A DNA stretch of 64,000 nt from Thermoanaerobaculia bacterium (GCA_035636095.1 DASPZU010000015.1:15371-79370), one strand, 5' to 3'. Shown: positions 3,699 through 61,728, numbered from the stretch's first letter. Numbers and translations: made by a program. The notes: generated by a model from the letters alone, not told the origin.

Positions 3699-3758
3699 CC
3701 GCCCACGCGCCCGGTTGGGACGTTGGGATGTTGGGATGAGGGCTGTATGGCAGCCCTC
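3699..3758 (+). repeat. Left arm of a heptamer-array inverted repeat plus a terminator-like GC hairpin
   Basis: Leader CCCACGCGCCCGG is followed by (GTTGGGA)x3, then the hairpin GAGGGCTG-tatgg-CAGCCCTC and a U-rich tail. The mirror copy lies at 4143-4196. Confidence 0.6.
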
Positions 3759-4101
3759 ATCTTCGTCTGACGTAGCCGATGTATCCCTCCAGGGCGCGTC
3801 GCGATTCGTCGAGAGTTTCGAAGGGTTCTTTGCGCCGCAAGTAACCTACGCGTTCAGCGATGATCAGCTGCGTCTCGAGCTCGAACAATGATCCACGGGC
3901 CTGACTCAGAAATTGCCTTCGCTCACCCGAAGTCAGACGTCCTTCACCTTCAGCAATATTTGAGGGGATTGAGACCGCACTCTTTCGCACCTGATGCGTC
4001 AACCCGTAAATTTCTCGGCCGGGAAAAGCGTCAGTCACACGATAGATTTGCTCACAGAGAGTCATGGCGTGTTGCCACGCGACAAGGTCCTTGTAATTCA
4101 T
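3757..4101 (-). CDS. Four-helix-bundle protein (23S rRNA intervening-sequence protein / Avd-like family)
   Basis: 114 aa starting MNYKDLVAWQ...IYGLTHQVRKSAVSIPSNIAEGEGR...FLSQARGSLFELETQL, which is characteristic of the TIGR02436/PF05635-type four-helix bundle. ATG start at 4101. Confidence 0.8.
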   Translation of the reverse strand: MNYKDLVAWQHAMTLCEQIYRVTDAFPGREIYGLTHQVRKSAVSIPSNIAEGEGRLTSGERRQFLSQARGSLFELETQLIIAERVGYLRRKEPFETLDESRRALEGYIGYVRRR

Positions 4102-4142
4102 GAGTGATTGACGGAGCGACTACGGGAAGACGCGATCGCGCC

Positions 4143-4196
4143 TCGTGTGGGACACAGATCCTAACATCCTAACGTCCCAACCGGGTGGGTGGGGGG
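4143..4196 (-). repeat. Right arm (inverted copy) of the heptamer-array repeat
   Basis: On the minus strand it reads CCCACCCACCCGG + GTTGGGACGTTAGGATGTTAGGAT, about 27/29 identical to 3711-3739 in inverted orientation. Confidence 0.6.
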
Positions 4197-6104
4197 TCAG
4201 TGCGACCGTTCGTTCCCAATCCGCGTCTGGCTGAGCGTTTCCTGAAATTGCGGCGCGGGGACGGGGAAGCCGAAGTAGAAGCCCTGCACCTCGCGGCAGC
4301 CGTGCTCCCTCAGAAAATCGAGCTGCGGCTTGGTCTCGACTCCCTCCGCCACGACGCGCAGGTTGAGTCCCTGCGCGAGCTCGATGACCGACCGAACGAT
4401 GGCGGCATCTTCGAATCGGTCGGGCAGGTCCTCCACGAAATTGCGATCGATTTTGAGGCAGTCGATCGGGAAGCGTTTCAGGTAGCTCAGCGATGAGTGC
4501 CCCATGCCGAAATCGTCGATGGCGATGCTGATACCGGTGCGGCGCAAGCGCTCGAGTACCTTGAAAGTCAGATCGACATTCTCCATGGCCACGCTCTCGG
4601 TGATCTCGAGCTCGAGACACTCCGGTTCGATCCGCGCCTGCTTGATGGCCGACTCGATTCCGTCAACCAGCGAGAGCTCGCGGAACTGGCGCGCGGAAAG
4701 ATTCACGGCCACCCTGAAATCGGGGAAGCCGAGGTCCCGGAAGGCGCGGGCCTGATGAAGGGCGGTGCGCAGCACCCAATCGCCGATCAACACGATGAAT
4801 CCGCGCTCTTCGGCCACGGACAGGAAACTTCCCGGCGACATGAGCCCGCGCTCCGGATGCCGCCATCGCAGGAGTGCCTCCATGCCCACGATGCGATTGG
4901 TGCGGATGTCGATCTGGGGCTGGTAGTAGACCTCGAACTCGTTCCGCTCCATGGCCTGATGCAGACCGCTTTCGAGTGTCAGGCGCTCCTGCATCGAGCG
5001 GCTCAGCTCCTGGGTCGACATCTCGTAGCAATTGCGGCCGACCGCTTTCGCTCGATACATGGCATTGTCGGCGTTCTTGAGCAGCGTCTCGGCGTCCTCG
5101 CCGTCGTCGGGATAGACGGTGATGCCGACGCTGGCGGTGATGTAGAGGCGCTGGCCGTCGATGTCGATCGGCTCGGCGATGATCCGCAACACGCGCTGCG
5201 CCATCGATGCCGCGTCTTCTTTCTTTTCCAGCTCCTGAAGGACGATGGTGAACTCGTCGCCGCCGACGCGGGCCACGACATCGCCTTCGCGCACGCTGTT
5301 TTTCAAACGCGTTGCGATCTCGCGCAACAAACTGTCTCCGAGTGTGTGACCGAGGGAGTCGTTGACGACTTTGAAGTTATCGAGGTCGAGGAACAGCACC
5401 GCCACCGGGCGCCGCTTGCGCTGGGCAAGGGCAAGCGCGAGCGTCAGATGTTCCTGGAAGAGCCGGCGGTTGGCGAGTCCGGTGAGCGCGTCGTGATACG
5501 ACTGGTACTCCATCTGCTGCTCGGCGCGCTTTCGGTCGGTCAGATCGAGAATCTTGCCGATGACACCCGAGACGTTGCCCTTCGAATCAAACTGCGGGCG
5601 GTAGGAAGCGGTGATCCATCCCTGCCGGTCAGTTCCGGGAATCATGTACGAGGTCTCGGCGAGCGAAACTGTCTCGCCCATCAGGACGCGCGCCAGGATG
5701 TCGTCGATGGGCTGTTCGCCGAGGACGGGGAAGAAATCGCCGGCGCGTTTGCCCAGGACTTCCTCGGCGCGAAGACCGGTGAACTCTTCCATGAAGTGAT
5801 TCCAGACCTGACAACGCAGCTCCCGGTCGTAGACCACAATTCCCTCGGCGACATTCGACATGATGTCGGTAGCAAGGTCGGGATCATGGCGTACGCTCTC
5901 GGGGGTGGGGGCGGGCTCGGGCTCGCGCGATTCGCGGGGAGCGCTCCGCTCGCGCATCCGAACCAGCTGGGGCGTGCGTCCGGTGAGAGCGAGGGTGATC
6001 GATACGAAAGCGGAACCGACGACGATGCACACAGCCACCAACGCGGCGGAGATGGCTATGGCGAGGACAACTAGAGCGGCGGAAATCACTACCTCAGCCG
6101 GCAT
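4197..6104 (-). CDS. Membrane-anchored PAS-GGDEF-EAL protein (diguanylate cyclase/phosphodiesterase)
   Basis: N-terminal transmembrane segment. GGDEF (VARVGGDEF) and EAL (EALLRW) motifs are both intact. The track start at 6143 is TTG; the in-frame ATG (MPAEVV...) at 6104 is the alternative. Confidence 0.85.
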   Translation of the reverse strand: MPAEVVISAALVVLAIAISAALVAVCIVVGSAFVSITLALTGRTPQLVRMRERSAPRESREPEPAPTPESVRHDPDLATDIMSNVAEGIVVYDRELRCQVWNHFMEEFTGLRAEEVLGKRAGDFFPVLGEQPIDDILARVLMGETVSLAETSYMIPGTDRQGWITASYRPQFDSKGNVSGVIGKILDLTDRKRAEQQMEYQSYHDALTGLANRRLFQEHLTLALALAQRKRRPVAVLFLDLDNFKVVNDSLGHTLGDSLLREIATRLKNSVREGDVVARVGGDEFTIVLQELEKKEDAASMAQRVLRIIAEPIDIDGQRLYITASVGITVYPDDGEDAETLLKNADNAMYRAKAVGRNCYEMSTQELSRSMQERLTLESGLHQAMERNEFEVYYQPQIDIRTNRIVGMEALLRWRHPERGLMSPGSFLSVAEERGFIVLIGDWVLRTALHQARAFRDLGFPDFRVAVNLSARQFRELSLVDGIESAIKQARIEPECLELEITESVAMENVDLTFKVLERLRRTGISIAIDDFGMGHSSLSYLKRFPIDCLKIDRNFVEDLPDRFEDAAIVRSVIELAQGLNLRVVAEGVETKPQLDFLREHGCREVQGFYFGFPVPAPQFQETLSQTRIGNERSH

Positions 6105-6256
6105 CCGCAAAAATAGTGTCGTCGACTCGCGAAAATGTTGCAAGAAAAAACTTTAGGGTAATTATCGACAGATTTCAGTCTCAAGATCATGAGCTATTGC
6201 GATTCGCGCCCGTTTCTGATCAGCAGGAGCTCGCGACCAGGTAGGGGCTCACGCGG

Positions 6257-6607
6257 CTAGGGGAACGCCCAAAGCACGCCAGCCGCAACGATGGTGAGCA
6301 CGGTGGCTCCCCCGTAGCAAATGACGGCAATCAACCCGTACAGGTGCTCGAGCTGCAATCCGTCGTAGAGCGTGTAACGGAAGCGATGCCCCCAATGGAA
6401 GAACGAGAGTGACACGAGCACGAACAGCGACAGCCGGACCAGCGGATGCTGCAGCTTGTGGACGAACAGACTGTAGGACGGAGCTTCGACCCAGCCGATC
6501 GGAACGGAAATCAACAAGAGCAGGACAAGCGCGGGGAGGAAAAGCGCCGCTATTGTTCCGCCGCCGCTGAACAAAACCCAGAAAAACGGCTCTCTCGATC
6601 GCGGCAT
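6257..6607 (-). CDS. frdD: Fumarate reductase membrane anchor subunit D
   Basis: 116 aa and hydrophobic. EPFFWVLFSGGG aligns with E. coli FrdD EPVFWGLFGAGG. It is the last gene of a frdABCD-ordered cluster. Confidence 0.8.
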   Translation of the reverse strand: MPRSREPFFWVLFSGGGTIAALFLPALVLLLLISVPIGWVEAPSYSLFVHKLQHPLVRLSLFVLVSLSFFHWGHRFRYTLYDGLQLEHLYGLIAVICYGGATVLTIVAAGVLWAFP

Positions 6608-6610
6608 GGG

Positions 6611-7021
6611 TCACCCCTGCAGAAAAAACCAGAACACCAGCCACGAGGCGGCGAGAAATCCGAGATAGTGAGCGAGTAGCACCATTCGGCCTGGAACCTG
6701 ACGATGCCTCACACGGATCACCATCGCTTTCGGTGCCAGCTTGAGCCAGGTGATCGTATGAAAAAGCACGGCAACGAAGATCAGGGTGTGGAGAATCAAC
6801 GCAAGAGGAGACTGCAGAAACCGCATGAACCGCGCGTAGGTTTGCTCCCCGCCGCTGAGCATCCATACGAATACGACCAGAAGGACCGCCGAGTAGCCGA
6901 CCGCAAGACTGGTCAATTCGCGGATGATGAACTTGATATAGGAGAGTCTTTCCAACCACCAGAAAATCGGCATCTGGGCGCGGTACCACCTCGGGTGGTA
7001 GAGCTTGTAGGTCGGATTCAC
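6611..7021 (-). CDS. frdC: Fumarate reductase membrane anchor subunit C
   Basis: ...[28 protein letters not shown] resembles the E. coli FrdC N-terminus ([24 protein letters not shown]). The start is GTG at 7021 overlapping the frdB stop (GTGA), or ATG at 6973. Confidence 0.7.
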
Positions 7022-7758
7022 TGTTTTCCCCACGGCATCAACACCGATTTGATCCAATCCATCGTCGCCTGCACCTTGTAACGCTGAATCGCGCCAGCCG
7101 GATCGACCTTTTTCGGACAGACCACCGAGCACTCGCCGACGAATGTGCAGTTCCAGATGCCGTAGTGCGTCGACAACACATCCATCCTCTCGTCCGATCC
7201 CTGATCGCGTGAATCCATGTTGTAGCGCTGCGCGAGGGCGATGGCCGCCGGGCCAATGAACAGCGGCTCGAGCGGATAGATCGGACAGGCCGAATAGCAC
7301 AGCAGGCAGTTGATGCACATGCTGTACTTCTTGTATTCCGCCAGCTCTTCGGGTGTCTGCAGGTACTCTCCCTCGGAGAGCGGCTTCTCATGTGTGCGAG
7401 TGATCCACGGCTTGACGCGCTCGAGTTTGTCGACGAAGTCCTGAATGTCGACGACAAGATCGCGAATCACGGGAAACGCTTTCAGCGGCTCGACGCGGAC
7501 CGGGGCCGACACGCTGGACAGATAGGTCGCACAAGTGAGCACCGGCTCGCCATTCACCATCATCCCGCAGCTTCCGCATACGCCCATCCGGCACGCCCAA
7601 CGGTACGAGAGACTCCCGTCGAGATGATCCTTGATGTAATTGAGGGCATCGAGCACCATCCACTCGGAGCGGGCCGGAACCTCGAAGACGTCCCAGGAGG
7701 GCTTCTCCTCCTCTTCCGGCCGATAGCGCTGAATCTCGACGGTGACCAACTCTGTCAT
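7018..7758 (-). CDS. frdB: Fumarate reductase / succinate dehydrogenase iron-sulfur subunit
   Basis: Cysteine clusters [15 protein letters not shown] and [15 protein letters not shown] at 7758. Confidence 0.9.
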
Positions 7759-7759
7759 T

Positions 7760-9502: not shown

Positions 9503-9575
9503 CGCTCCCGGTGTGATTGTATTTCGCGAGTTCAGAGGAGTATATCGTGCGAAGATCCGTCGGAAGGAAGGCGTC

Positions 9576-12417: not shown

Positions 12418-12429
12418 CTACACAGTGTA

Positions 12430-12462
12430 AAGGACTGGGGACTGAGGACTGAGAGTCAGTCG
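12430..12462 (-). repeat. Heptamer-array hairpin (GGACTGR x3 / GAGTCAGTC) overlapping the stop codon of the DUF4097 gene
   Basis: aaGGACTGGGGACTGAGGACTGAGAGTCAGTCgtc. It lies between two co-directional genes, so it is likely an intrinsic terminator. Confidence 0.5.
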
Positions 12463-14191: not shown

Positions 14192-14195
14192 GTTT

Positions 14196-14267
14196 GGTAA
14201 GGCCGGTAAGGCGGGTAAGTAGGGTGGTAGCCCCGTCTTACCGGCCTTACGTCCTTACTGTCCTTAC
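14196..14267 (+). repeat. Hairpin built from a 9-nt tandem unit (GGTAAGGCS x3-4 / inverse CTTACNGKC) between convergent genes
   Basis: GGTAAGGCCGGTAAGGCGGGTAAGTAGGGTGGTAGccccGTCTTACCGGCCTTACGTCCTTACTGTCCTTA. It spans both stop codons. Confidence 0.55.
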
Positions 14268-29294: not shown

Positions 29295-30400
29295 GCGCCG
29301 ACCGCAACCTCGACGTAGGGCGTGATGTCGAAGTTACGCTCGTGGAGTTCGTGAATGCGCTCCATCTCGGCGTCGCTGAGCGGCGGATGATCGGATGCTG
29401 ATGCAAACTCGCGGAGCTGCTGGTCGTCGTAGATGTTGGGCAGCACGGACACGATGCTGCGATGCGCGTACTGCCACAGGAGCGCGAACTGGCCGATCGT
29501 GACGCTTCGCGCGTCGCACATCGGTTTGAGTCGATCGACCTTCTGCAGTCCTTCCACCAGCCACGCGCGCGGACGATGCGAGCGGTGATCGTTCTCATCG
29601 AACTTCGTGTCGAGCGTGTACTTCCCTTCCAGCATGCCCGACGAATGCGGCACGCGGACGAGAAATTGCGGCTGCGGGTTCGCCTTCCAGGCGCGGAAAT
29701 TTGAGTCGAAGAAGCTCGTGCGCGTGCAAAGTTTCTTGTGCGTCTGACCCTGCATCGCCTCCGGCACTGCCGGATACGATGCGCCGCGCTCGGCGGCCAG
29801 CATGAACTCGCGTCCGGGATCCTGCTCCAGGAGGTTGTAGATCATCTGCGTGACCGGAGCCTTGCGCATTGCGGTAGCGTAAATGCCCTCGTCACGCCAT
29901 CCGATCGCCGGACCGAGCGACGGGCCGTACGACTGAATCTTTCCTTCGCGTTTCAGCGCCTCGAGCGTGTCCCAATGCTCGTCCTGCATGAGGACATCCA
30001 CGCGCGGATTGTGGGGTTGATAAATCGCGATGGTGCCGACGCCGAGGCGCTGCAGCGATTGCTCGCAGGCAAAGCGGATGAACTTCGGCGACATGTCCTG
30101 CGGCAGCTCGCGCTGACCGCGCGGGCGCTCGGGGTTGTTGTAGAAGTCGTATCCGAATTTCGTACCGATGACGAGATCGCGGTGCTCTTTCAGAATCGGC
30201 TTCAGGATCGATTCGCCGCGGCCGTTGCCGTAGGCATCGGCGGTGTCGATGTAGTTGATGCCGAGGTCGATGGCGGAGCGGATCAGGTCCTGCGCTTGTG
30301 TGTCGGTGTAGTCGCCCCACCAGCCCGTCGACACCGTCCAGGTACCGAAGCCGAGCTCGGAGAGTGTTAGGTCTGTGCCGTGTAATTTTCGGTATCGCAT
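29291..30400 (-). CDS. Aldo/keto reductase
   Basis: LGFGTW...IDTADAYGNGRGE is the AKR N-terminus. Confidence 0.9.
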   Translation of the reverse strand: MRYRKLHGTDLTLSELGFGTWTVSTGWWGDYTDTQAQDLIRSAIDLGINYIDTADAYGNGRGESILKPILKEHRDLVIGTKFGYDFYNNPERPRGQRELPQDMSPKFIRFACEQSLQRLGVGTIAIYQPHNPRVDVLMQDEHWDTLEALKREGKIQSYGPSLGPAIGWRDEGIYATAMRKAPVTQMIYNLLEQDPGREFMLAAERGASYPAVPEAMQGQTHKKLCTRTSFFDSNFRAWKANPQPQFLVRVPHSSGMLEGKYTLDTKFDENDHRSHRPRAWLVEGLQKVDRLKPMCDARSVTIGQFALLWQYAHRSIVSVLPNIYDDQQLREFASASDHPPLSDAEMERIHELHERNFDITPYVEVAVGA

Positions 30401-30466
30401 GGTTGCTGGGTTACTGGGTTGCTAGGTTGCTAAAGGGTTGCTCAGCAACCGAGCAACCCAGCAACT
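30401..30466 (-). repeat. Heptamer-array hairpin (GGTTGCT x4 / AGCAACC x3) between the crotonase stop and the AKR start
   Basis: GGTTGCTGGGTTACTGGGTTGCTAGGTTGCTaaaGGGTTGCTCAGCAACCGAGCAACCCAGCAACtattttc. Confidence 0.6.
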
Positions 30467-31265
30467 ATTTTCCCGCAAATTGCGGTTTACGTTTCTGGTT
30501 GTATGCCCCCAGCCCTTCCTTGGCATCGTCGCTCTGGAAGAGTTGCTGCTGCAGCTCGCGCTCGACCGCCAGCGCGCTTTCGAGCGGGATTTCCCAGCCC
30601 GTTTGCACGGAGCGTTTGATGCGGCCAACAGCTTTCGCGGCTTTGTTAGGCGGACAGAAACTCCACGCGTACTCCATGACGCGGTCCCACCACTTCCGCC
30701 CACCCTCCTCTGCCGGCCACACGTAGTTGACGATGCCCCATTCCCGCGCCTGCTCGAACTCGAACAGATTGCCTTCGCCCATGAGCTGGATCGCACGTGA
30801 CTTGCCGACCAGGCGCGACAACCGCTGGGTGCCGCCGGTGCCCGGCAGAACGCCCAGCGTGACTTCCGGCAGACCGACTTTGCCTGCGCCCTTGAGCGCG
30901 ATGCGAATGTCGGCCGCCATCGCGATTTCCAATCCACCGCCGACGGTGTGGCCGTTCAGCGCGGCGATCACCAGCTTCGGCGTCTGCTCGAGGCGCAGCA
31001 GCGTCTCATTCGCATGCAGGCAGAAGAAGTATTTGAACTGCGGTGTGACCTCGGAAAGCATCTTGATGTTTGCGCCGGCGGAGAAAAACTTCTCGCCTGC
31101 GCCGCGCATCACGATCACGTGGACGTCGTCATCCATCCGCGCCTTCAGGATGCAGTCATCCAGCTCGCGGTTCATCTCGTAGGTGTAGGTGTTGGCGGGA
31201 GGGTCGTTGAGCTCGAAAATCGCAACGCCCTTCTCCACGCGGTAGTCGATTAAGTTTCCAGCCAT
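30465..31265 (-). CDS. Enoyl-CoA hydratase/isomerase (crotonase) family protein
   Basis: ATG at 31265. MRGAGEKFFSAGANI and a crotonase fold. Confidence 0.85.
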   Translation of the reverse strand: MAGNLIDYRVEKGVAIFELNDPPANTYTYEMNRELDDCILKARMDDDVHVIVMRGAGEKFFSAGANIKMLSEVTPQFKYFFCLHANETLLRLEQTPKLVIAALNGHTVGGGLEIAMAADIRIALKGAGKVGLPEVTLGVLPGTGGTQRLSRLVGKSRAIQLMGEGNLFEFEQAREWGIVNYVWPAEEGGRKWWDRVMEYAWSFCPPNKAAKAVGRIKRSVQTGWEIPLESALAVERELQQQLFQSDDAKEGLGAYNQKRKPQFAGK

Positions 31266-32374: not shown

Positions 32375-32442
32375 AGTCCTGAGTCCTGAGTGCGAGTCCT
32401 GAGTTTATATGGCTCAGTCTGCTCAGGACTCAGCACTCAGGA
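32375..32442 (+). repeat. Heptamer-array hairpin (AGTCCTG x3 / CTCAGGA x3) in the divergent pfk/glsB promoter region
   Basis: AGTCCTGAGTCCTGAGTGCGAGTCCTGAGtttatatggCTCAGTCTGCTCAGGACTCAGCACTCAGGA. It shares the same heptamer as the hairpin at 58894-58967. Confidence 0.6.
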
Positions 32443-32510
32443 ATCGGCACTGTGCTTGCTCATCCATTAGCCCGTCAGCATCACGCTGACGAAAGCTTGG
32501 AGGAAAGAGC

Positions 32511-32785: not shown

Positions 32786-32815
32786 TTGGCCCCGCGCGAG
32801 CGGGGCTTTTTGTTT
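32786..32815 (+). terminator. Rho-independent terminator
   Basis: GCCCCGCGCGAGCGGGGC followed by TTTTTGTTT. Confidence 0.8.
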
Positions 32816-34534: not shown

Positions 34535-34557
34535 TTCTCATTTCTTTCTTGGCAGTG

Positions 34558-34592
34558 GAGCGCCGCCGACTTCGGCGGCGCTTTTTTTTTGG
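34558..34592 (+). terminator. Rho-independent terminator
   Basis: GCGCCGCCGACTTCGGCGGCGC followed by TTTTTTTTT. Confidence 0.9.
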
Positions 34593-41881: not shown

Positions 41882-42477
41882 ACCAGCACTCCGCCCCGCC
41901 CTTCTGCAATCAGCTCGCGGCCGTGGTAGTGAAATTCGTTGAGCGCATCCAACAGCAGGAGGCGGCGCTCGATGCGCTCTTCGTCCGCGCGGGTGTAGAC
42001 GGTGGCCTCGAGAAAAGCGGTGCCGTCGCTTCGCAGCTCCACCGACGGAAGAAACGACGCCACCAGGGCGCGCACGATCTGCGCCGACTGCGTTCGGCGC
42101 AGCGCGGCATCGTATTCGTCGGATGACGCGATGACGGTCGTCATGCGCCATGACGCCGACCCGATGATCTCCGAGATGACCAGCCAGTATTCGAAGATCG
42201 CGGATGGCGTGCGATCGACCTCGAAATATTTGAAGAGCGGCTCGTCAGGAACGACGAAGGGTACGCTGAGGTCGCCGTCGATCTGGTACTGAACACGTCC
42301 GTCCAGATGAACTCCCTCCGCATATTCGAGGAGCGCCGATGCGAAGATCTCGAGATGCGCCGTGGGCGGAGTCTCGCCTGGAACAAAGGTGTCCCGAAAT
42401 TGCGCGGCGGCAAGCTCGTGTGCGCGTGCGATGCGATCGCGGATGCGGGTTACTTCGACTATCGGAATGGTCGTCAT
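41878..42477 (-). CDS. Hypothetical protein (about 199 aa)
   Basis: ATG at 42477 (MTTIPIVEV...); the track start at 42501 is TTG. No motif. Confidence 0.4.
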   Translation of the reverse strand: MTTIPIVEVTRIRDRIARAHELAAAQFRDTFVPGETPPTAHLEIFASALLEYAEGVHLDGRVQYQIDGDLSVPFVVPDEPLFKYFEVDRTPSAIFEYWLVISEIIGSASWRMTTVIASSDEYDAALRRTQSAQIVRALVASFLPSVELRSDGTAFLEATVYTRADEERIERRLLLLDALNEFHYHGRELIAEGRGGVLV

Positions 42478-42489
42478 CCTGAGCGTAAC

Positions 42490-42535
42490 GAAGGATCTCA
42501 ATATGCGAACAGCGTGGCAACCTGAGATCCTTCGC
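42490..42535 (-). terminator. Stem-loop (11-bp stem) between dsbD and the hypothetical gene
   Basis: GAAGGATCTCA-atatgcgaacagcgtggcaacc-TGAGATCCTTC. It has no clear U-tract. Confidence 0.4.
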
Positions 42536-42559
42536 CGTCTGCGCGGCTCGGGATGACGA

Positions 42560-45945: not shown

Positions 45946-48048
45946 TCAGCGGACGGTGATCGTTACAGAATCGCGGCGGCCTTCGTCGTCGACGGCGGTG
46001 ATCGTGTGCCTGCCCCCGCGCAGAGACCACGCGTCATCTGTGTGACGGCCATCGACCATCCACGTTACGGGAGCGGTGGCTTTGAGCTGAAGCGCCTGGA
46101 ACTCGGCACGAAGGGTTGGATCGATCCAGTAAGTCGCGCCCTCGGCGGGATTCAAGATGTGAAGGACAGGCGAGCGACGGGCTGAAGCCGGACCCACATC
46201 CCAGGCGCGATATTCAGCAGGCAATTCAACGCGCTGCGAGTGATGCCACGAACAGAATTCGACGCGATTTGAGGCGGGCATCCACTCGCTTTCGACGGCG
46301 GGACACTCCATCGACGGACGATGGCCGGAGAGCGCGCAAATCGGCCGCCGCTCGAGATCGGCAGGACGATCGACGATCGTTCCCCGCCCGCCCCCCACTC
46401 TCTTCACGGCCGCCAGCATCACGTCGTGAAAAATCGGCGCGGCGCCGGTGATGCCGCTCGAGTTGCGCAACTCGCTGCGATCGAAATTCCCCACCCACAC
46501 GCCGACAGTGATTTCGCGCGTGTACCCGACCGTCCAGTTGTCGCGATAGGCCTGCGAAGTTCCGGTCTTCACGGCGACCTGGAATGGGAAATCGAGACTG
46601 CCGCCCGATCCGAAGATGTACTCGCGGGCGTGTTCATCGCTGAGGATGTCGGTGATCCAGAACGCGGTGCGCTGCGACATCACGCCATCACCGCCGCGCG
46701 CGAAGATGGCATACGCCGTCACCAACTGCTCCAGGGTCACCTCGGCATCGCCGAGCGTCAGGCCGACTCCGTAGTAGTCGGCGGTGTGCGTGAGATCACG
46801 GAAGCCGGCGTGGCGAAGGAATCGCAGCAGCGACTCGGGACCGATTTTGGCGAGCGTCGCCACTGCCGGCACGTTTTCCGACCCGGCAAGCGCGACGCGC
46901 GCGCGCAGTGGTCCGCGAAATTTTCCATCGTAGTTGCGGGGCGTGTAGATGACGCCCGGCTCAGCAGTCGCGAAATGCGACGGCACGTCCGCGATGACCG
47001 TGGCGGGAGTCAAGCCTTGCTCGAAAGCGAGCGCGTACGTCAACGGCTTCAGAGTCGATCCAGGCTGGCGCAGCGTCGTCACGCCATCGATCGCGCCGCC
47101 GAAATTTTCACCGAAGTAATCGCCCGAGCCTTCCCACGCCAGCCATTCGCGCGTCCGATTGTCGAGGACCGCGATCGCGACGCTGTGCGCGCCGTGGCGC
47201 AGCAGATCGGAGCGATGCGCCGCGATGATGCCGTGGATTTCGCGCTGGAGATTTGCATCGAGAGAGGTGCGAATGATCGCCGCCGAGGTCGACGGCGCTC
47301 CACTGAGAATCCGCGCGACAAAATGCGGCGCGATCATCGGATGGCGTCCGCGGTCGAACGACAAACGCTCCGCGCGAGCGGTGCGGTAGTCGGGCTCGGA
47401 GATCATCTTCAGCTCACGCAGGCGGCGGAGGATCAAGCGTTGACGCTGTAGCGCGAGCCTGGGCGTTCCGGGTCGTCGCGGCAAAGCCGCCAGATATGCC
47501 GCCTGCGCGATGGTGAGTTGATCAGGCTGGCAGCCGAAGTAGCGATCGCTCGCGCGCGCGATTCCCACGGTCTGCTGGCCATAAGGGGCCAGATTCAGGT
47601 ACAACGCCAGAATCTCGGCCTTGGAGTGACGATGCTCGAGTCTGAGCGCCGTGATCGCCTCGCGAACTTTCGAGCGGACGCTGCGCGGCGCGCCCGGAAC
47701 CATGAGCTTCGCGACTTGCTGCGTGATCGTCGATCCCCCTTCGACGACGCGCACGTGCAGGAGATTGTGGAAGGCCGCTCGCGCGGTGCCGATCGGATCG
47801 ATGCCGATGTGATGGTAAAAGCGGTGATCTTCCGCGGCCATGGCGGCCTTGGCGATGTTGTCGGGAATCGCCGTGATCCAGGTGCTGCGCGTCCCATTTG
47901 CCGACAGCGGCTCGGAAAGAATGATGCCGTTGCGATCGACGATGGTCGGCGTCGTCTCGGGTCTGATCTCTGGAATCGGCCCAATTCGCATCCAAATAGC
48001 GAGACTGATGACCGACAACAGACAACCGACAACCGACAACTTTTTCAA
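45946..48048 (-). CDS. pbpC: Penicillin-binding protein 1C (glycosyltransferase + transpeptidase)
   Basis: GT51 motifs AEDHRFYHHIGID and GGSTITQQVAKL, with a transpeptidase domain. TTG start overlaps the A2M stop (TTGA). The signal peptide is encoded by (CCGACAA)n. Confidence 0.85.
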   Translation of the reverse strand: MKKLSVVGCLLSVISLAIWMRIGPIPEIRPETTPTIVDRNGIILSEPLSANGTRSTWITAIPDNIAKAAMAAEDHRFYHHIGIDPIGTARAAFHNLLHVRVVEGGSTITQQVAKLMVPGAPRSVRSKVREAITALRLEHRHSKAEILALYLNLAPYGQQTVGIARASDRYFGCQPDQLTIAQAAYLAALPRRPGTPRLALQRQRLILRRLRELKMISEPDYRTARAERLSFDRGRHPMIAPHFVARILSGAPSTSAAIIRTSLDANLQREIHGIIAAHRSDLLRHGAHSVAIAVLDNRTREWLAWEGSGDYFGENFGGAIDGVTTLRQPGSTLKPLTYALAFEQGLTPATVIADVPSHFATAEPGVIYTPRNYDGKFRGPLRARVALAGSENVPAVATLAKIGPESLLRFLRHAGFRDLTHTADYYGVGLTLGDAEVTLEQLVTAYAIFARGGDGVMSQRTAFWITDILSDEHAREYIFGSGGSLDFPFQVAVKTGTSQAYRDNWTVGYTREITVGVWVGNFDRSELRNSSGITGAAPIFHDVMLAAVKRVGGGRGTIVDRPADLERRPICALSGHRPSMECPAVESEWMPASNRVEFCSWHHSQRVELPAEYRAWDVGPASARRSPVLHILNPAEGATYWIDPTLRAEFQALQLKATAPVTWMVDGRHTDDAWSLRGGRHTITAVDDEGRRDSVTITVR

Positions 48049-56048: not shown

Positions 56049-56054
56049 ATGCGG

Positions 56055-56756: not shown

Positions 56757-56821
56757 GACCACCGGCGCGTCGGGCTGGCGAGTGGGCGCAATGCGGTCGA
56801 TATCCAATAGAATCCAATCCG

Positions 56822-57280
56822 ATGAGGCGTTTTGGGCTGCTGACTTTGTCTTTCGCCATTTTTGCATGCGCGAGCTCGAAGCAGGCGGCCTCGAAGCCAA
56901 AAATCGCCGAGCCGGGAATCGGGCTGGAGCAGGAGGTTGGGCCCGCGCAGCTTGGTTACCCGTACGGCCCGATCGAGATCAAGTACAACCTCAGCGTTCA
57001 AAACAACGCCGCCATCGCCATCACACTGATCCGCGTTGACATCCAGTCGATCAATCCGGCCGGCGGCGCGTACAACCTGCGGCACAGCTTCTACAACTTC
57101 AAGCAGGAGATTCCGCCTAACAGCGTCGGCGTGGTGACCTTCTGGGCGAGGGCATTCGGGTGGGGCCGCGGACTGCGTGAAAACGAACCGGTGAGCGTGC
57201 GCGGAGTGGCGTACTTCGAATCGCCGAGCGGGGCGCTGCAGAAGGTGTTCATCCGCGAACTGTCCCAGTATCCGGACTAA
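56822..57280 (+). CDS. Hypothetical lipoprotein
   Basis: MRRFGLLTLSFAIFACASSKQ with a lipobox-like FAC. Confidence 0.5.
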   Translation: MRRFGLLTLSFAIFACASSKQAASKPKIAEPGIGLEQEVGPAQLGYPYGPIEIKYNLSVQNNAAIAITLIRVDIQSINPAGGAYNLRHSFYNFKQEIPPNSVGVVTFWARAFGWGRGLRENEPVSVRGVAYFESPSGALQKVFIRELSQYPD

Positions 57281-58119
57281 CGCAGTGGACGCATCCGCTG
57301 CTGCAAGAGCCAGCGCGCCATTCCGGCGTCGGCGTAGGCAAGATCCCACGCATCGTGTCCAATGCCCGGATACTCGGTGTATGTCACCGTTCCACCGCCG
57401 CGCCGAAGAGCTTCGACCATGTTGCGCGACTCGCGCACGGGAACTTCATCGTCCCTGGTTCCGTGAAACGCCCACACCGGGGTCGTGCCGATTGCCTGTG
57501 CCAATGCCGAATATGGATCGGGCGCACCGACGATGCGCGCGATGTCCGGCGGCAGCTCGACCGGAAACGGATCGGCGGGATCGCGTGCGACTTCGCCGCA
57601 GATCGGAACCACAGCCGCGAATCTCCGGCGATGGCGCGCCATGTACCACGCACCCGTCCCGCCCATCGAGATGCCGGTGAGGTACACCCGTCGCCGATCG
57701 CCATGGAATTCGCGAATCGAGCTTTCGAGCGCTGCCATCACCTGCGATTCCATGTCGCCGTACCACTCCTGCCCGAAGCCGCATTGCGGAAAGATCACCA
57801 CCGCTTTGTACCGGTCGCCGAAATGCTCGAGTGCCGGAGCGAGACCTAACGCCAGTTGCCTTTCGTTGTCATCGCCCCGCTCATTGCTGCCGTGCAGAAA
57901 GAGAATCACCGGCCAGTGATGCACCTTCGTGTAATGCGGCGGCAGCCAGACGCGATAGCGATACTGATGATCGCCGAGGGAGACGCTGCGCTCGAGAAAA
58001 CGAGACTCGCGGGCGCAGGACAGGAGAAGGCAGAAGGCAAAAAGCAGAAGGCAGAAGTAAGAAGATTGCTTTGCGGTTACTTCTGCCTTCTGCCTTCTGC
58101 TTTCTGCCTTTTCGATCAC
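57277..58119 (-). CDS. Alpha/beta-hydrolase esterase (phospholipase/carboxylesterase or PHB-depolymerase-like), probable lipoprotein
   Basis: ILFLHGSNERGDD...GISMGGTGAW...GHDAW gives a Ser-Asp-His triad. The only start compatible with the upstream GT2 stop is GTG at 58119 (GTGA overlap). That gives a signal peptide ...YFCLLLFAFCLLLSC (lipobox) encoded by the GAAGGCA/TGCCTTC hairpin. The track N-terminus of about 130 aa is spurious. Confidence 0.65.
   Translation of the reverse strand: MIEKAESRRQKAEVTAKQSSYFCLLLFAFCLLLSCARESRFLERSVSLGDHQYRYRVWLPPHYTKVHHWPVILFLHGSNERGDDNERQLALGLAPALEHFGDRYKAVVIFPQCGFGQEWYGDMESQVMAALESSIREFHGDRRRVYLTGISMGGTGAWYMARHRRRFAAVVPICGEVARDPADPFPVELPPDIARIVGAPDPYSALAQAIGTTPVWAFHGTRDDEVPVRESRNMVEALRRGGGTVTYTEYPGIGHDAWDLAYADAGMARWLLQQRMRPLR
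58026..58110 (-). repeat. Heptamer-array hairpin (GAAGGCA x4 / TGCCTTC x4) inside the 5' end of the esterase CDS
   Basis: GAAGGCAGAAGGCAAAAAGCAGAAGGCAGAAGtaagaagattgctttgcggttaCTTCTGCCTTCTGCCTTCTGCTTTCTGCCTT. Confidence 0.65.
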
Positions 58120-58829
58120 TCGAACAGATCGTATTCGGTGACCGGCAGCGGCGACGACTGCTCCGCCATGTCGGACTGCCAGGTCGCGAAGACATACAGA
58201 TCCCAATGGAGGAGAAAAACCTCGCGACTCATTTCCCAGCGCGCGGCAAGGCCCGGCCACAATCCGCGTTTGCTCTCTTTGATGAGGTGGCCGAGGTTGT
58301 AGACGATGGTCTGCTGTTGCCGGAAGCCGGCGTGCGAGCAGAAAAAGTTGAGGGCGGCCTCGATCTTGAAGCGCTCCTGATACCGCACCGGAACGGTCTC
58401 CCACACTGCCCGGCGCATGACTCGGATGCCGGAAAGAACTGGACCGACCTTCATCTGCAGATGGAAAAAGTTGCGGATCCAGCCGCGGCTGCGCACGCCG
58501 ATGTTCATGTCGCATTGGTCGCGCAGAACGGGCGTAATGAGCGCTGCGATGTGATCGTCGGTGACGTCGAACATATCGCCATCGACAAAGAAGAGGATGT
58601 CGTGCCGGGCGTAGTCCACGCCGACGCGCATGGCGTATCCCTTGCCGCGGTTCTCGCGCAGGGCAATGGTGGTGACATCGAAGGAGCGGGCGATCTCGAC
58701 GGTGGCATCGGTCGAGCCGTCGCTGACCACGATGATTTCGTCAATCAGCCGGTTACGCGTCAGTACCGTGAGGACTTCAGCGATCGTTTTCTCTTCGTTA
58801 TACGCGGCGATGATTGCCGAAATCCCCAA
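58116..58829 (-). CDS. Family-2 glycosyltransferase
   Basis: ISAIIAAYNEE...VVSDGSTD...FVDGD carries the GT2 DxD and D motifs. TTG start. Confidence 0.8.
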   Translation of the reverse strand: MGISAIIAAYNEEKTIAEVLTVLTRNRLIDEIIVVSDGSTDATVEIARSFDVTTIALRENRGKGYAMRVGVDYARHDILFFVDGDMFDVTDDHIAALITPVLRDQCDMNIGVRSRGWIRNFFHLQMKVGPVLSGIRVMRRAVWETVPVRYQERFKIEAALNFFCSHAGFRQQQTIVYNLGHLIKESKRGLWPGLAARWEMSREVFLLHWDLYVFATWQSDMAEQSSPLPVTEYDLFE

Positions 58830-58893
58830 ACTTCACCTCAAAACGCCACTCTCTTTGCAACCGGCAGACCATAACACACCCGCCCACCCGCCC

Positions 58894-58967
58894 GGTCCTG
58901 AGTGCTGAGTCCTGAGTCCTGAGTCCTGAGCGGGCGAGTGTGTCTCAGGACTCAGAACTCAGGACTC
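58894..58967 (+). repeat. Heptamer-array hairpin (GTCCTGA x5 / TCAGGAC x3) in a divergent promoter region, with a CCCACCCGCCCGG leader
   Basis: cgcCCACCCGCCCGGTCCTGAGTGCTGAGTCCTGAGTCCTGAGTCCTGAGcgggcgagtgtgtCTCAGGACTCAGAACTCAGGACTC. Confidence 0.65.
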
Positions 58968-58988
58968 GCTTTTGCAGAACTCGCCAGC

Positions 58989-59447
58989 ATGAGACGCACA
59001 CTTACTTACGTATCGGTTTTGTTTTTGTTGAGCGGCTGCAACACGCTCGCGAATCTGCACATCATCAACCCGACCTATTCGATTCGGGGTATCGACCCGC
59101 GCGTCAACCTCGGGATCCCGCCCACGATGGACTTTGACTTCACGGTGGGCGTCGACAACCCGAATTCAGTCGCGCTGCGACTCGATCACTTCGATTTCGA
59201 TTTGTTGATCAACAACAATCGGGTGCTGAACAACGTTCGCAGCGATCAGGGCATCCACATCCCGGCACGCGGTACCGGCGACGTGCATCTGACATCGCAT
59301 GTCACGTACGACAACCTCCGGACGATCTTTAACGAAGTGGCAAACGTCGTCCAGGGGAACCGCGCCACGTACGCCATTCAAGGCAATGCCTATTACGACA
59401 CGCCGGCGGGCCGGGTGCAGTTCCCCGTAACGGTTTATTCGCGTTAG
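58989..59447 (+). CDS. LEA_2 / WHy-domain lipoprotein
   Basis: ATG at 58989. MRRTLTYVSVLFLLSGC lipobox. FTVGVDNPNSVALRLDHFDFDL is typical of the WHy/LEA14 fold. Confidence 0.6.
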   Translation: MRRTLTYVSVLFLLSGCNTLANLHIINPTYSIRGIDPRVNLGIPPTMDFDFTVGVDNPNSVALRLDHFDFDLLINNNRVLNNVRSDQGIHIPARGTGDVHLTSHVTYDNLRTIFNEVANVVQGNRATYAIQGNAYYDTPAGRVQFPVTVYSR

Positions 59448-59824
59448 CCGCGAACGTTGCGCGTGACGGTAATGGTGTCGGCCAGAAAGCGGCCGTTGCC
59501 GCTGTTGCCGCTGACGTTGATCTGGTCTCCGCGCTCGAGATCGGTGACGTTGTATCCGCTGTTGCCCTGGTAGACGACCTTGGTGCGGTTGTCGTAATAG
59601 ATCGACTGATTGCCCTGCGAGTTGCGCAGATTGTTCACGTACTGGATGTTGACATCGATCCGCTGATTCGTGGTGTCCACGAAGTTGACGGTCGCCTGCA
59701 CCGTCCCCGAATTGCTGCTCGACGTCTGCGGAACGCCGAAGATGCTGCCGAGGTCGCCAAGACCGCTGTTGGAGCTACAGGCAGCCATCAGCAGAACCAG
59801 CGCCACAATCGAAAGCTTACGCAT
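59444..59824 (-). CDS. Hypothetical lipoprotein
   Basis: ATG at 59824. MRKLSIVALVLLMAACSS lipobox. N/S/G/Q-rich. Confidence 0.5.
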   Translation of the reverse strand: MRKLSIVALVLLMAACSSNSGLGDLGSIFGVPQTSSSNSGTVQATVNFVDTTNQRIDVNIQYVNNLRNSQGNQSIYYDNRTKVVYQGNSGYNVTDLERGDQINVSGNSGNGRFLADTITVTRNVRG

Positions 59825-59873
59825 ACAAAACCTCCTATCGGTCGTGCACAATGAGAGAGCAAGGATCAAGCCG

Positions 59874-61067
59874 TTGTCGGAACGCCAGCGCACCCCTCTC
59901 GCCGTGGGCGCGATCGCAGCCGTGCTCTACTTTTCGGAAGGTCTGCCGTACGGCATCGTCACCGAGCTCGTCCCGCTGTATCTGCGCGTCGAGCACATCG
60001 AGCTCAAGGTCATCGGTCTCGCGAGCAGCGTGACCATCGCCTGGACGCTGAAGTTCTTGTGGTCGCCGCTGGTCGACACCTTCGGCACGTATCGGCGGTG
60101 GATCGCCGGTGCGCTCATCGTGATCGCGGGTGTGTTAGGCGCGATCGCGGTTCTGCCGGCCACCGTCACCGCCATCTTTTACGCGCTGGTGGCCCTCATG
60201 GCCCTGGGATCCGCGACGCAGGACATCGCGGTCGACGCATTCACGATTCGCGCGACGCCCACATCGATGCTCGGCCCCGTCAACTCGATCCGAGTGACTG
60301 CCTACCGCGTGGCAATGATGGTCGGCGCGGGCGGACTGGCCATCGTCGCGGGGCGGGTGGGATGGCGGACGGCGTGGGGCGTTGCGGCGACCCTGGCGGC
60401 CGGGATCCTGATCTTCGCGCTCATGTTGCCCGACGATCGTGGCGAACGGAAAGAACAGTCGAGCGTCTTCGCCGATCTCGCGCATTGGCTGCGCAGGCCG
60501 CGCGCCGGAATTCTGCTCACCATCGTTTTTCTCTATCGGATCGGCGAGTTTGCGATCGTGACGATGATCAAGCCGTACTGGGTCGACCGCGGCTATTCGC
60601 CTGCCGAGATCGGTACCATCACCAGCGTGGTCGGCGCACTCGCCATCATCGGCGGCGCGATTATCGGCGGTTGGTTCGTCGCGAAATTCGGAATGGTCGC
60701 CGGCCTGCTCTGGCTGGGCGTGGCGCAGACGCTCTCCAACCTCGGATACGCGATGGTGGCCACCATGCATGCGGGCCGATGGGCGATTTACGCCGCCGCG
60801 ATTGTAGAAAACCTCGGTTACGGCCTCGGCAACGCTGCCTTCCTCGCCTATCTGATGTCGATCTGCGATCGCGAACGCGCCGCGACAGAATATGCGCTGC
60901 TGTCGGCAGCCTTCGGACTCACCGGCGCTGCCGTCCGCGCCGGCAGCGGCTACGTGGCGCAGTACGCCGGCTATCCGTTCTATTTCTGGCTCACCGTGTT
61001 CCTCGGCATTCCGGTGCTGTTTCTGATTCCGCGAATCCGCGATGAAGCATCGATTCTTCGTTCCTGA
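59874..61067 (+). CDS. MFS transporter (AmpG/LplT-like)
   Basis: 12 transmembrane segments. The start is uncertain: TTG at 59874 with AAGGA upstream, or GTG at 59844. The track ORF at 59670 overlaps the convergent lipoprotein. Confidence 0.75.
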   Translation: MSERQRTPLAVGAIAAVLYFSEGLPYGIVTELVPLYLRVEHIELKVIGLASSVTIAWTLKFLWSPLVDTFGTYRRWIAGALIVIAGVLGAIAVLPATVTAIFYALVALMALGSATQDIAVDAFTIRATPTSMLGPVNSIRVTAYRVAMMVGAGGLAIVAGRVGWRTAWGVAATLAAGILIFALMLPDDRGERKEQSSVFADLAHWLRRPRAGILLTIVFLYRIGEFAIVTMIKPYWVDRGYSPAEIGTITSVVGALAIIGGAIIGGWFVAKFGMVAGLLWLGVAQTLSNLGYAMVATMHAGRWAIYAAAIVENLGYGLGNAAFLAYLMSICDRERAATEYALLSAAFGLTGAAVRAGSGYVAQYAGYPFYFWLTVFLGIPVLFLIPRIRDEASILRS

Positions 61068-61728
61068 TCGCGTTGAAGTCGGCGCGACCATCGCCCTCCA
61101 CTCGGAGGAGCGACATCACGCGCGCGTGTTGCGAGTGCGCGAAGGGGAAGAAGTCGAGATCTTCGATTCGCAAGGCAGAAATTTTGTTGCGCGTCTCGAC
61201 GATCCGGATTCGATCGCGATACTTCGCGAATCTGAGAGCCGAGAACTGAGAACCGAGATCCGACTCGCGATGTCGATCATTCAGCTCGAGAAATTCGAGC
61301 TCGTTCTGCAAAAAGCGACCGAGTTAGGCGTGGCGTCCTTCATTCCGCTGATCACCGACCGCATGGAAGTGCGCATCGAGCGTTTGCGCGGAAGAGAAGA
61401 TCGCTGGAAAAAAATCGTGCTGGAAGCGGTCAAGCAATCGGGACGCTCAAAAATCCCGGTGATCGAAACGCCAACGGAATTCGACGACGCCATCAAACGT
61501 GAAGGGACAAAGATCATTTTCGATGCCGACACACCGCCAGCAACCGAGCAACCGAGCAACCCAGCAACCCTTTTCATCGGTCCCGAAGGCGGCTTTTCCG
61601 AACGCGAATTACAGCTCGCGCGCGCATCCGGTGCAGCGTTGGAACAACTCGGGCCGCGACGGTTGCGCGCCGAAACTGCCGCCATCGTAGCGGTCGCGCT
61701 GGTCGCTGCGAGAAGTGGCGACATTTGA
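61042..61728 (+). CDS. rsmE: 16S rRNA (uracil1498-N3)-methyltransferase RsmE
   Basis: MKHRFFVP..., LFIGPEGGFSERE and LGPRRLRAETA. It carries an in-frame heptamer-array insert (PATEQPSNPAT) just before IGPEGG. Confidence 0.85.
   Translation: MKHRFFVPDRVEVGATIALHSEERHHARVLRVREGEEVEIFDSQGRNFVARLDDPDSIAILRESESRELRTEIRLAMSIIQLEKFELVLQKATELGVASFIPLITDRMEVRIERLRGREDRWKKIVLEAVKQSGRSKIPVIETPTEFDDAIKREGTKIIFDADTPPATEQPSNPATLFIGPEGGFSERELQLARASGAALEQLGPRRLRAETAAIVAVALVAARSGDI

Follow-up and report, generated by a model that had tools for sequence, protein, structure and literature searches.

The stretch analysed here (the window, 64 kb in length) comes from an uncultured member of the Thermoanaerobaculia (Acidobacteriota) and corresponds to bases 2193-66192 of the 76-kb JGI soil-metagenome contig Ga0137388_10000047. 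It has a GC content of 61.7%, and its citrate synthase and other proteins are closest to those of 'Thermoanaerobaculia bacterium' or Acidobacteriota metagenome-assembled genomes (MAGs). The gene content is ordinary housekeeping, with genes for fumarate reductase, ABC transporters, PFK, HtrA, PBP1C, alpha-2-macroglobulin, citrate synthase and others. At the boundaries of these genes, and in a few places within them, lie palindromes whose arms are tandem arrays of short units (array hairpins), and one pair of such arrays encloses a gene for a protein of the PF05635 family, the intervening-sequence protein (IVP) gene. Where they overlap the window, assemblies from sister samples match it at 99.6-100% identity, as do two NCBI metagenome assemblies; as independent assemblies carry the identical sequence, the repeats are no assembly artefact. 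A search of the window with Rfam at the gathering threshold gave 0 matches, and the window contains no rRNA genes. Below, W denotes the window, L-numbers (such as L006, L129 and L210) are labels of comparison loci, and p929 is a 929-aa protein encoded beside the IVP gene.

The PF05635 cassette and its flanking arrays

The first-pass annotation of this DNA described inverted arrays at 3711 and 4153, which are indeed present, but it overlooked the gene that they enclose. The encoded protein of 114 aa matches the Pfam family PF05635 ('23S rRNA intervening sequence protein', E=1.6e-32), TIGR02436 ('four helix bundle protein', E=1.3e-30) and the PDB entry 2GSC, the pentameric XCC0516 protein of X. 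campestris (E=1.4e-25). In the orientation of the gene, the cassette consists of a GC box, three 8-nt G-rich units, a 5' untranslated region (UTR) with the box CCCACACGAGGCGCGATCGC, the open reading frame (ORF), a small GC hairpin, three C-rich units and a second GC box (Table 1). In the predicted minimum free energy RNA fold of positions 3690-4205, the stem formed by the two arms closes the structure and encloses the ORF; so modelled, the arm-paired cassette RNA has the architecture of the intervening sequences (IVS) of rRNA. The cassette is located between the p929 gene and a GGDEF-EAL gene, outside any 23S rRNA helix, and because it is flanked by protein genes in a window without rRNA it is IVS-like, and not an rRNA IVS.

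At this site, the close relative L130 has the cassette as well, with four units where the window has three. Between these two, the IVP ORF has a dN/dS of 0.09 at a dS of 0.85, while the arms are still ~90% alike. Judged by this purifying selection, the IVP gene is functional. No match to the IVP protein was found in PADLOC or PHROGs, and no relative of it in viral contigs. To our knowledge, no function has been assigned to PF05635 proteins outside diversity-generating retroelements (DGRs), although a structure (2GSC) has been solved. The family is related to the Avd protein of DGRs (PMC10053308).

A metagenome scan with the IVP protein of the window yielded 80 loci with 47-87% identity. For the 54 with complete flanks, 220 nt upstream of the gene were compared with ~340 nt downstream of it, and the highest-scoring ungapped inverted repeat was taken (score cut-off >=13). 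Such a repeat flanks 44 of the 54 homologues, and in 36 of the 54 the arms are periodic; in control windows shifted by 1.1-1.5 kb at the same loci, an inverted repeat was found once in 142 cases and a periodic one in 0 of 142. An independent repeat search agrees on L154, L171, L190, L138 and L011, with arms of up to 75 nt at 91% complementarity. The G-rich arm is located 5' of the gene in 38 cassettes and 3' in 3. The unit tracks the protein: GTTGGGAY is found with the closest homologues, followed by GGTAAGGMC, GGGATGAC, AGTGGGC, GGTTGCGC, AGTTGTT, GAGGGAA and others. Cassette pairs below 45% protein identity share a unit in 0% of cases and those at >=65% identity in 53-55%, so that units and protein co-diverge, and they do so across non-syntenic sites, since none of the homologue loci except L130 is syntenic with the window. 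Two units connect cassettes with gene-less hairpins of the window. The IVP gene of L011 lies between (GTCCTGA)3 and its complement, and the unit of the hairpin at the TPR/OmpA junction (hairpin C), GGTAAGGCS, is exactly the unit that flanks the IVP genes of L139 and L140.

The same arrangement is found outside the Acidobacteriota. The X. campestris homologue (2GSC/XCC0516) is encoded between accB and accC, flanked by the array GGGAATC GGGAGTG GAGAATC GGGAAT and a complementary array (24 of 27 positions complementary), and the Lysobacter homologue shows the same accB/accC-type arrangement with the same GGGAATC unit. In the 23S rRNA IVS of Coxiella with the S23p ORF, the stem contains tandem GACAGAT heptamers of strain-variable copy number, with RNase III cleavage at the first of them (PMC4990558). 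The association of gene and arms thus holds in three phyla at the level of sequence, and the evidence ties PF05635 to heptamer arrays in Acidobacteriota and Xanthomonadaceae as well as, on published data, in Coxiella.

As a separate observation, accB and accC are separated by a conserved PF05635 gene throughout Xanthomonadaceae and Lysobacteraceae (L213 2438-4740, X. campestris; L217 1007-3306, Lysobacter), so that an essential operon, that of acetyl-CoA carboxylase, has an IVS-like cassette in a spacer.

Array hairpins in the window and in related genomes

All loci listed at first pass were found at or within a few bases of their reported positions. The arrays were recovered by TRF with periods of 7, 8 and 9 nt and 3-5 copies per array, and a repeat search recovered the arm pairs 3699-3737/4158-4196 (39 nt, 87%), 58024-58060/58077-58113 (37 nt, 89%), 58907-58930/58944-58967 (24 nt, 96%), 30399-30423/30444-30468 (25 nt, 88%) and 14197-14215/14232-14250 (19 nt, 95%). 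The proposed unit length of 7-9 nt therefore stands, with the correction that GTTGGGA and GGTTGCT, given as 7-mers, have a period of 8 (GTTGGGAY and GGTTGCTN). Hairpins were scanned as ungapped inverted repeats with a score >=12 and a loop <=40 nt, and were called periodic when the arms had a self-similarity >=0.78 at a lag of 7-9 nt. The 64 kb contain seven such hairpins, five of them with periodic arms, against 0-2 hairpins and no periodic ones in each of 20 dinucleotide-preserving shuffles. The window has 7 strict 7/8-nt arrays, whereas 100 shuffles averaged 0.1 and never exceeded 2. The excess over shuffled sequence, on which the family status of the loci had been made to depend, is thus present.

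The leader reported before the arrays was recovered as well: CCCACSCRCCCGG has three exact matches in the window, each abutting an array, and 8 matches at <=1 mismatch where 0.69 are expected. Loops are 12-31 nt long. The predicted RNA folds of the array hairpins are stable (-38 to -55 kcal/mol, z -4.3 to -10.6); RNA folding leaves the two arrays with a single arm (12431 and 48011), also listed as members of the family, unstructured. In the hairpin of the divergent GT2/LEA_2 spacer (58876-58943), the leader ACACACCCGCCC, which precedes the 5' arm, has its complement in the loop CGGGCGAGTGTGT, resulting in a pseudoknot-like order leader-arm-leader'-arm', unlike a simple extended palindrome.

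In ~74 kb of the source genome (the window and 9 kb beyond it from the sister contig L129) we counted 16 array loci, which between them use 13 or more different units, and related genomes show a similar density. That each locus has its own unit, as proposed, holds only in part. GTCCTGA is found twice in the window, AGCAACC is common to the arm at 30443 and the rsmE array at 61539, and GAAGGCA recurs 9 kb beyond the window end (L129 13419-13495), so that it is used twice in W/L129, as is GTGCCCC in L006. Units also recur across genomes: GGTCTCGC, GCCGGTT and AATTTCA are present in other Acidobacteriota MAGs, and a scan of one genome per species found (GTCCTGA)3 in at least 118 stretches. Among the matches listed, this array spans Acidobacteriota, Gemmatimonadota, Planctomycetota, Cyanobacteria, Nitrospirota, Chloroflexota and others, and many are hairpins, often with GGGYGGG(TGTG) in the loop like the window copy at 58931.

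Gene context was tabulated for 73 periodic hairpins pooled from the window, four syntenic relatives and ~100 other loci, with heuristic gene calls based on GC content at third codon positions (GC3). The junctions of 56 periodic hairpins (31 tandem, 11 convergent and 14 divergent; 55/20/25%) are indistinguishable from background junctions (349, 109 and 101; 62/20/18%); non-periodic hairpins from the same DNA (31, 17 and 5; 58/32/9%) show a terminator-like pattern. Array hairpins are distributed without regard to gene orientation, and the mixed positions noted at first pass are those of the background. A terminator role, which had been suggested for some copies, is not borne out. No array hairpin is followed by a T-run and a terminator scan reports none, though classical terminators with a GC stem and a T-run are present at 34557-34584 (GGAGCGCCGCCGACTTCGGCGGCGCTTTTTTTTT, after htrA) and 32788-32807. 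Given this and the background-like junctions, we rejected ordinary intrinsic terminators as an explanation.

More generally, the hairpins could be RNA structures selected at operon junctions, as terminators, 3'-end protectors or processing sites, with a sequence that drifts and a periodicity that is a side effect of stem repair. The predicted stems are very stable, convergent junctions always have some palindrome, periodic or not, two spacers discussed below have kept a hairpin in four lineages despite replacement of its sequence, and the stems of rRNA IVS are substrates of RNase III (PMC4990558). Yet T-runs are lacking, a quarter of the junctions are divergent, where non-periodic hairpins are depleted, some copies lie within coding sequence and many orthologous spacers have no hairpin at all. 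A signature of RNA-level selection in the form of G:U-compatible stem mismatches on the transcribed strand was also rejected, as there is no preference for the sense strand (18 vs 16). We therefore consider selection for RNA structure unlikely.

Binding sites in DNA for a global regulator or nucleoid protein, as proposed for Geobacter (PMC2700814), would suit a distribution that ignores gene orientation and includes divergent promoter regions, and tandem units suit multimeric binding. However, the presence of many unrelated units in one genome is a poor fit to a single regulator, units at orthologous promoters are replaced wholesale, and copies are found at 3' ends and inside genes. G-quadruplexes (G4), as proposed for the GGGAATC repeats of Xanthomonas (PMC4692102), find some support in the G-runs of GTGCCCC/GGGGCAC, AGGGATG and GTTGGGA. 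Most units, such as GTCCTGA, GAAGGCA, GGTTGCT and AATTTCA, have no G-runs and cannot form G4, for which reason the G4 reading was rejected. Taken together, regulator sites and G4 elements make a very improbable explanation.

The 5' arm has more G than C in 56 periodic hairpins and the opposite in 9 (binomial p = 2e-9). After removal of the unit family used for searching, the counts are 30 vs 6; for non-periodic hairpins they are 48 vs 46. As a palindrome is identical on both strands, this polarity belongs to the element itself and does not depend on how the genes are oriented. The GGGAATC pairs of Xanthomonas, described as 'always convergent' (PMC4692102), have the same polarity.

The array hairpins are mostly intergenic, as was first reported, but the copy at 58024-58113 and two further arrays lie in coding sequence. 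The former adds 19 codons, in frame, to the sequence for an esterase's lipoprotein signal peptide, of which one arm encodes the hydrophobic h-region FCLLLFAFCLLLSC; the GTG start of the gene still overlaps the upstream stop codon as GTGA, exactly like in L006. The GAAGGCA hairpin of the purC/LCAT spacer (L129 13419-13495) replaces the stop codon of purC, and a 13-residue tail (EGRRQKDAGRSEN) is read from arm and loop, where PurC of relatives ends at EPxL. Other hairpins extend up to the very start codon (30399-30468 and L129 15091-15149). In rsmE (61042-61728; L006 9315-10001; L010 7120-7800), two variable loops are encoded by arrays in all lineages, with differing units, and non-triplet repeats of 7-8 nt are tolerated in frame. 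The two rsmE arrays are not complementary, and we rejected the idea that they form a long-range inverted pair.

Orthologous spacers were compared in four syntenic lineages with 85-89% identical citrate synthases, namely L129 (the genome of the window itself), L006, L009 and L010, and in two further syntenic relatives, L210 and L212, with 68-73% identity in p929. The RR/T2SSE spacer has a periodic hairpin in all four lineages, with the units AGGGATG, GTGCCCC, GTCCTGA and GAGTGAA between conserved flanks, and the pyrR/pyrB spacer always has one as well (GGCCGGT, GTGCCCC, GCCGGTT and GTTGCCA). In the GT2/LEA_2 spacer, (GTCCTGA)5 of the window corresponds to (GTGCTGA)4 in L010 and to a single unit in L006. 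The queF/T2SSE and purC/LCAT spacers are filled in some lineages; elsewhere the genes are 0-4 nt apart. At the TPR/OmpA junction, hairpin C of the window is matched by a plain GC hairpin in L210 and by a different palindromic element in L212. The single arm at 12431 in the permease/DUF7330 spacer is a decayed copy, as the L212 ortholog is a complete hairpin. In related genomes the hairpin of a given spacer is thus either retained, with units or copy numbers that differ, or missing. This variation is seen between more distant relatives; among five or six near-identical contigs from other samples no hairpin indel was found.

The p929/GGDEF junction holds the gene between (GGGATGTT)n arms in W and L130. 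L210, which is syntenic over ~17 kb, has a gene-less orthologous copy at this junction, a hairpin of (GGATGACG)3-4 and (TCATCCCG)2. Its loop keeps GAGGGAGCttcgGCTC, a remnant of the small post-ORF hairpin of W, L130, L134 and L141, and the adjacent GC box is conserved too. The L210 unit GGGATGAC differs from GGGATGTT of the window at the same two positions in every copy of both arms. This concerted change, together with the 3 vs 4 units of W and L130, is in line with the slippage-type dynamics proposed at first pass.

Such dynamics might be all there is to the arrays. Slippage favouring units of ~7 nt and intrastrand template switching that inverts arrays could produce the palindromes as mutational by-products, neutral and self-homogenising, with PF05635 genes merely ending up or surviving in the loops. 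The concerted change of units and copy numbers, the single-arm arrays at 12431 and 48011 and the rsmE arrays, which lie on one strand and keep their positions with different units, are what this explanation would predict. The esterase insertion also fits, in that one arm overwrites an older h-region and the other arm with the loop makes up the net 19 codons, like a local inverted duplication. In addition, heptanucleotide repeats are the most abundant class of long simple sequence repeats in prokaryotes, according to work cited in PMC4679880. On the other hand, the same unit with the loop motif GGGYGGGTGTG is found at unrelated loci in different genomes, units are reused within a genome (GTGCCCC in L006, GAAGGCA in W/L129), the divergence of unit families parallels that of the PF05635 protein at sites without synteny, the GGGAATC arms are conserved between Xanthomonas and Lysobacter, and the strong 5'-G polarity requires an extra assumption. 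A purely mutational origin is, in our estimation, rather doubtful.

Table 1. Array loci and cassette features of the window (positions from its first base; an empty cell means that no value is given)
Feature	Position	Strand	Units or sequence	Context and remarks
IVP cassette left arm (3' in gene orientation)	3699..3738		GC box CCCACGCGCCCGG (3702-3714), then GTTGGGAC GTTGGGAT GTTGGGAT	39-nt inverted repeat, 87%
Small GC hairpin	3735..3761	-	GATGAGGGCTG-tatgg-CAGCCCTCATC	Directly after IVP stop; kept in related cassettes
IVP gene, 114 aa, PF05635 / TIGR02436	3757..4101	-		In array-hairpin loop; profile and PDB matches
Conserved 5'-UTR box	4132..4151	-	CCCACACGAGGCGCGATCGC	~35 nt upstream of IVP start; present in L130-L140 cassettes
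IVP cassette right arm (5' in gene orientation)	4158..4196		ATCCTAAC ATCCTAAC GTCCCAAC, then CCGGGTGGGTGGG	
Single-arm array with 6-bp mini-hairpin	12431..12462		(GGACTGR)x3	Between two minus-strand genes (permease/DUF7330)
Hairpin C, 9-nt units	14196..14267		GGTAAGGCS	Fills convergent TPR/OmpA spacer
Hairpin, 8-nt units	30399..30468		GGTTGCTN	Fills entire spacer from ECH stop to aldo-keto reductase start (both -); predicted RNA fold -41 kcal/mol, z -8.6
Hairpin, 7-nt units	32375..32451		AGTCCTG	Divergent spacer, PFK (start 32368) vs Transgly_assoc gene (start 32511)
Single-arm array	48011..48040		(CCGACAA)x4	Alpha-2-macroglobulin stop to PBP1C start (-); no predicted structure
Hairpin, 7-nt units	58024..58113		GAAGGCA	Within esterase CDS (57277-58119, -); predicted RNA fold -55.5 kcal/mol, z -10.6
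Leader and hairpin	58883..58967		Leader CCCACCCGCCCGG, (GTCCTGA)5 / (CTCAGGA)3	Divergent GT2/LEA_2 spacer
7-nt array	61232..61263	+	GAGAACY	Inside rsmE CDS; L006 ortholog has GCGAACC x3 at the same place
8-nt array	61539..61570	+	AGCAACCN x4	Inside rsmE, encodes PPATEQPSNPAT; unit shared with 30443 arm; same protein loop encoded by AGCAACCC x4 in L010 and CGAACAA x4 in L006

Several other elements were seen nearby. A second, unrelated palindromic family is represented at 42472-42558, between two minus-strand genes, by GTCATCCTGAGCG..CGAAGGATCTC, a loop and GAGATCCTTCG..GCTCGGGATGAC; it also occurs at the p929/GGDEF and TPR/OmpA junctions of L212 and at L006 4801-4892 and 14603-14646. Right after the citrate synthase stop, at 63034-63225, lies a 46-nt inverted repeat (78% complementary, 100 nt apart) that is missing from the same spacer in L006, L009 and L010. 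It looks like a miniature inverted-repeat transposable element (MITE), because its terminal motif GGGGTCAGRYCT recurs in L048, L057, L078 and L142. Beside the RR/T2SSE hairpin, ~4.4 kb past the window end (L129 16630-16660), TATAAT-N7-GTG is conserved on the gene strand in all four lineages. This looks like the -10 box and leaderless start of the T2SSE ATPase gene, and the -35 position of this candidate promoter falls within the hairpin arm. The spacer upstream of a pyrR-like gene (L129 20263-20509; orthologs in L006, L009 and L010) contains the strongly conserved blocks GAGGATACCAC..., GTGATTTAGAGGCTTGACA... and TACAAT, which are probably a pyr leader or attenuator and the divergent promoter of an M23 peptidase gene, unrelated to the hairpins.

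Proposed origin and spread of the palindromes

On balance, we lean towards a dispersed palindrome family in which the full form is an IVS-type PF05635 cassette and the short hairpins are a gene-less, MITE-like form of it. The gene-less L210 hairpin, hairpin C and the GTCCTGA hairpins (with L011 as the corresponding cassette) share their termini with gene-bearing forms, and as far as sequence can tell they fit a relationship by internal deletion.

In this family, each arm consists of 3-5, sometimes more, tandem units of 7-9 nt, G-rich on the 5' arm and complementary on the 3' arm, and the full-length element comprises, in this order, the G-rich arm, a short 5' UTR, the PF05635 gene, the small GC hairpin and the C-rich arm. 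Elements are located in gene-boundary spacers of every orientation, many of which they would themselves have generated, and occasionally in coding segments that tolerate them. Being palindromes with few mismatches, they would be structurally quiet insertions, as the stem in the transcript brings the flanks back together; a stop codon and the next start codon would then meet at the stem base, leaving the insertion nearly neutral for operon expression. By analogy with the intervening sequences of rRNA, the stems would be RNase III-type substrates. The family presumably spreads within and between genomes, because the same unit and loop are found at unrelated loci and cassettes at non-syntenic sites. 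The pentameric PF05635 protein may recognise the repeat units, given that these co-diverge with the protein and that the arms are conserved beyond synonymous divergence. Slippage between units, combined with templating or correction from arm to arm, could keep the arms long and matched, and the fast concerted turnover of units and copy numbers would explain why orthologous spacers have hairpins of different units.

A number of points weigh against a mobile family of this kind. Domain searches and gene tables revealed no transposase, RAYT (the transposase associated with repetitive extragenic palindromic, REP, sequences) or reverse transcriptase among the window genes, the family is not known to have a transposase, and a comparison of filled and empty sites by eye revealed no target-site duplication; without transposase, target duplication or phage copies, the proposed mobility is one without a mechanism. 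The finding of different units at the same site can also arise from concerted evolution in place, without movement, and the direction could be the reverse, with a gene entering a pre-existing hairpin instead of being deleted from a cassette. The rsmE arrays, with conserved positions and different units in three lineages, show that arrays can form without a cassette. Many comparison loci owe their selection to the (GTCCTGA)3 search, and genes were called heuristically in them. Moreover, ~1 Mb of hairpin-bearing loci yielded just one further IVP gene (L011), and most unit families of the window (GAAGGCA, GGTTGCT, CCGACAA, GAGAACC) have no known cognate cassette. Finally, 16 of 38 hairpin units are within one mismatch of a cassette unit where ~8 are expected; as this ~2-fold overlap lies inside the range of shuffled units (maximum 18), the shared unit vocabulary was dropped as evidence.

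Beyond the dispersed family itself, we tentatively suggest a function for the protein. The PF05635 pentamer could be a sequence-specific partner of the arrays, with one unit per subunit, that mobilises, maintains or processes the palindromes. The gene and its arrays would then form an unrecognised class of selfish IVS cassettes, residing in the spacers of mRNA as well as in rRNA, whose gene-less derivatives account for the excess of heptanucleotide repeats in many phyla. We put this forward as a possibility, with considerable reservation. Heptanucleotide repeats have so far been read as G-quadruplexes, regulator sites or slippage noise, without an agreed origin, and a tie to PF05635 cassettes may explain the long-noticed surplus of these repeats in bacteria. 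There are also consequences for annotation. The hairpins fill spacers up to start and stop codons, and extend or invade ORFs, as in the purC tail, the esterase signal peptide and the rsmE loop; array hairpins should be taken for neither terminators nor promoters.

Comparison with known systems

The first-pass annotation regarded the loci as one architectural family distinct from REP sequences, bacterial interspersed mosaic elements (BIMEs) and CRISPR. We reach the same conclusion. CRISPR arrays have repeats of 24-48 nt with unique spacers, unlike the contiguous units of 7-9 nt found here, the second array of which is inverted. REP sequences and REPINs with their RAYT genes (PMC3116915, PMC3733652) are likewise short, high-copy intergenic palindromes at gene ends, and include a protein gene flanked by the same palindromes that are dispersed without a gene elsewhere in the genome. 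However, the elements described here lack a GTAG/CGTC head and have tandem arrays as arms, and the flanked gene encodes a four-helix bundle without known catalysis and not a Y1 transposase of the IS200/IS605 type; the window has no RAYT. With intrinsic terminators the array hairpins share a stable GC-containing stem-loop, often right after a stop codon, and several fill convergent spacers, but there is no T-run, the loops measure 12-31 nt, and the divergent share equals the background.

The architecture is not without precedent: palindromes of tandem heptamers are already known from Nostoc, Geobacter and Xanthomonas. What appears to be undescribed is the link to a cassette. In literature lacking most subscription journals, the Coxiella IVS observation was the only published connection between PF05635 and heptamers that we found.

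In the P6b hairpin of the Nostoc tRNA-Leu intron (PMC3488679), degenerate heptanucleotide repeats pair with their complements, and the length varies with copy number and inserted elements. A connection to cyanobacteria exists in that (GTCCTGA)3 is present in several cyanobacterial genomes, with a Scytonema hairpin of this kind at L068. The P6b hairpin differs in phylum and base composition, and a PF05635 link is absent from the searchable papers. The Geobacter metallireducens elements, annotated as 'class 1-4 global regulator binding sites' and H4 (PMC2700814), have four to five tandem heptanucleotides in strand-switching pairs, between and within genes, and the class 3 consensus MTYCTGA resembles GTCCTGA when compared by its description. 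The published reading takes them for regulator sites or regulatory RNAs and makes no link to a cassette or protein.

The GGGAATC repeats of Xanthomonas (Rehm et al., 2015; PMC4692102) are intergenic heptamers that are found chromosome-wide, with 70-75 inverted 'convergent' pairs per genome, and it is exactly these arrays that surround the PF05635 gene of X. campestris and Lysobacter. They were read as G-quadruplex forming, and the four-helix-bundle gene is not mentioned in that paper. In Xanthomonas there is one unit family per genome, versus many here, most of which are unable to form G4.

The IVS of 23S rRNA in Coxiella, Leptospira and others (PMC4990558) share with the window cassette a long terminal stem around a PF05635 ORF and an unexplained origin and mobility, and the Coxiella stem has the GACAGAT heptamers described above. 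The window cassette differs in its location between protein genes, and not in helix 25 or 45 of rRNA, and in arms that are wholly made up of tandem arrays and a GC box. Its ORF is under purifying selection, versus a decaying ORF in Coxiella, and in the genomes compared here gene-less copies far outnumber those that bear the gene.

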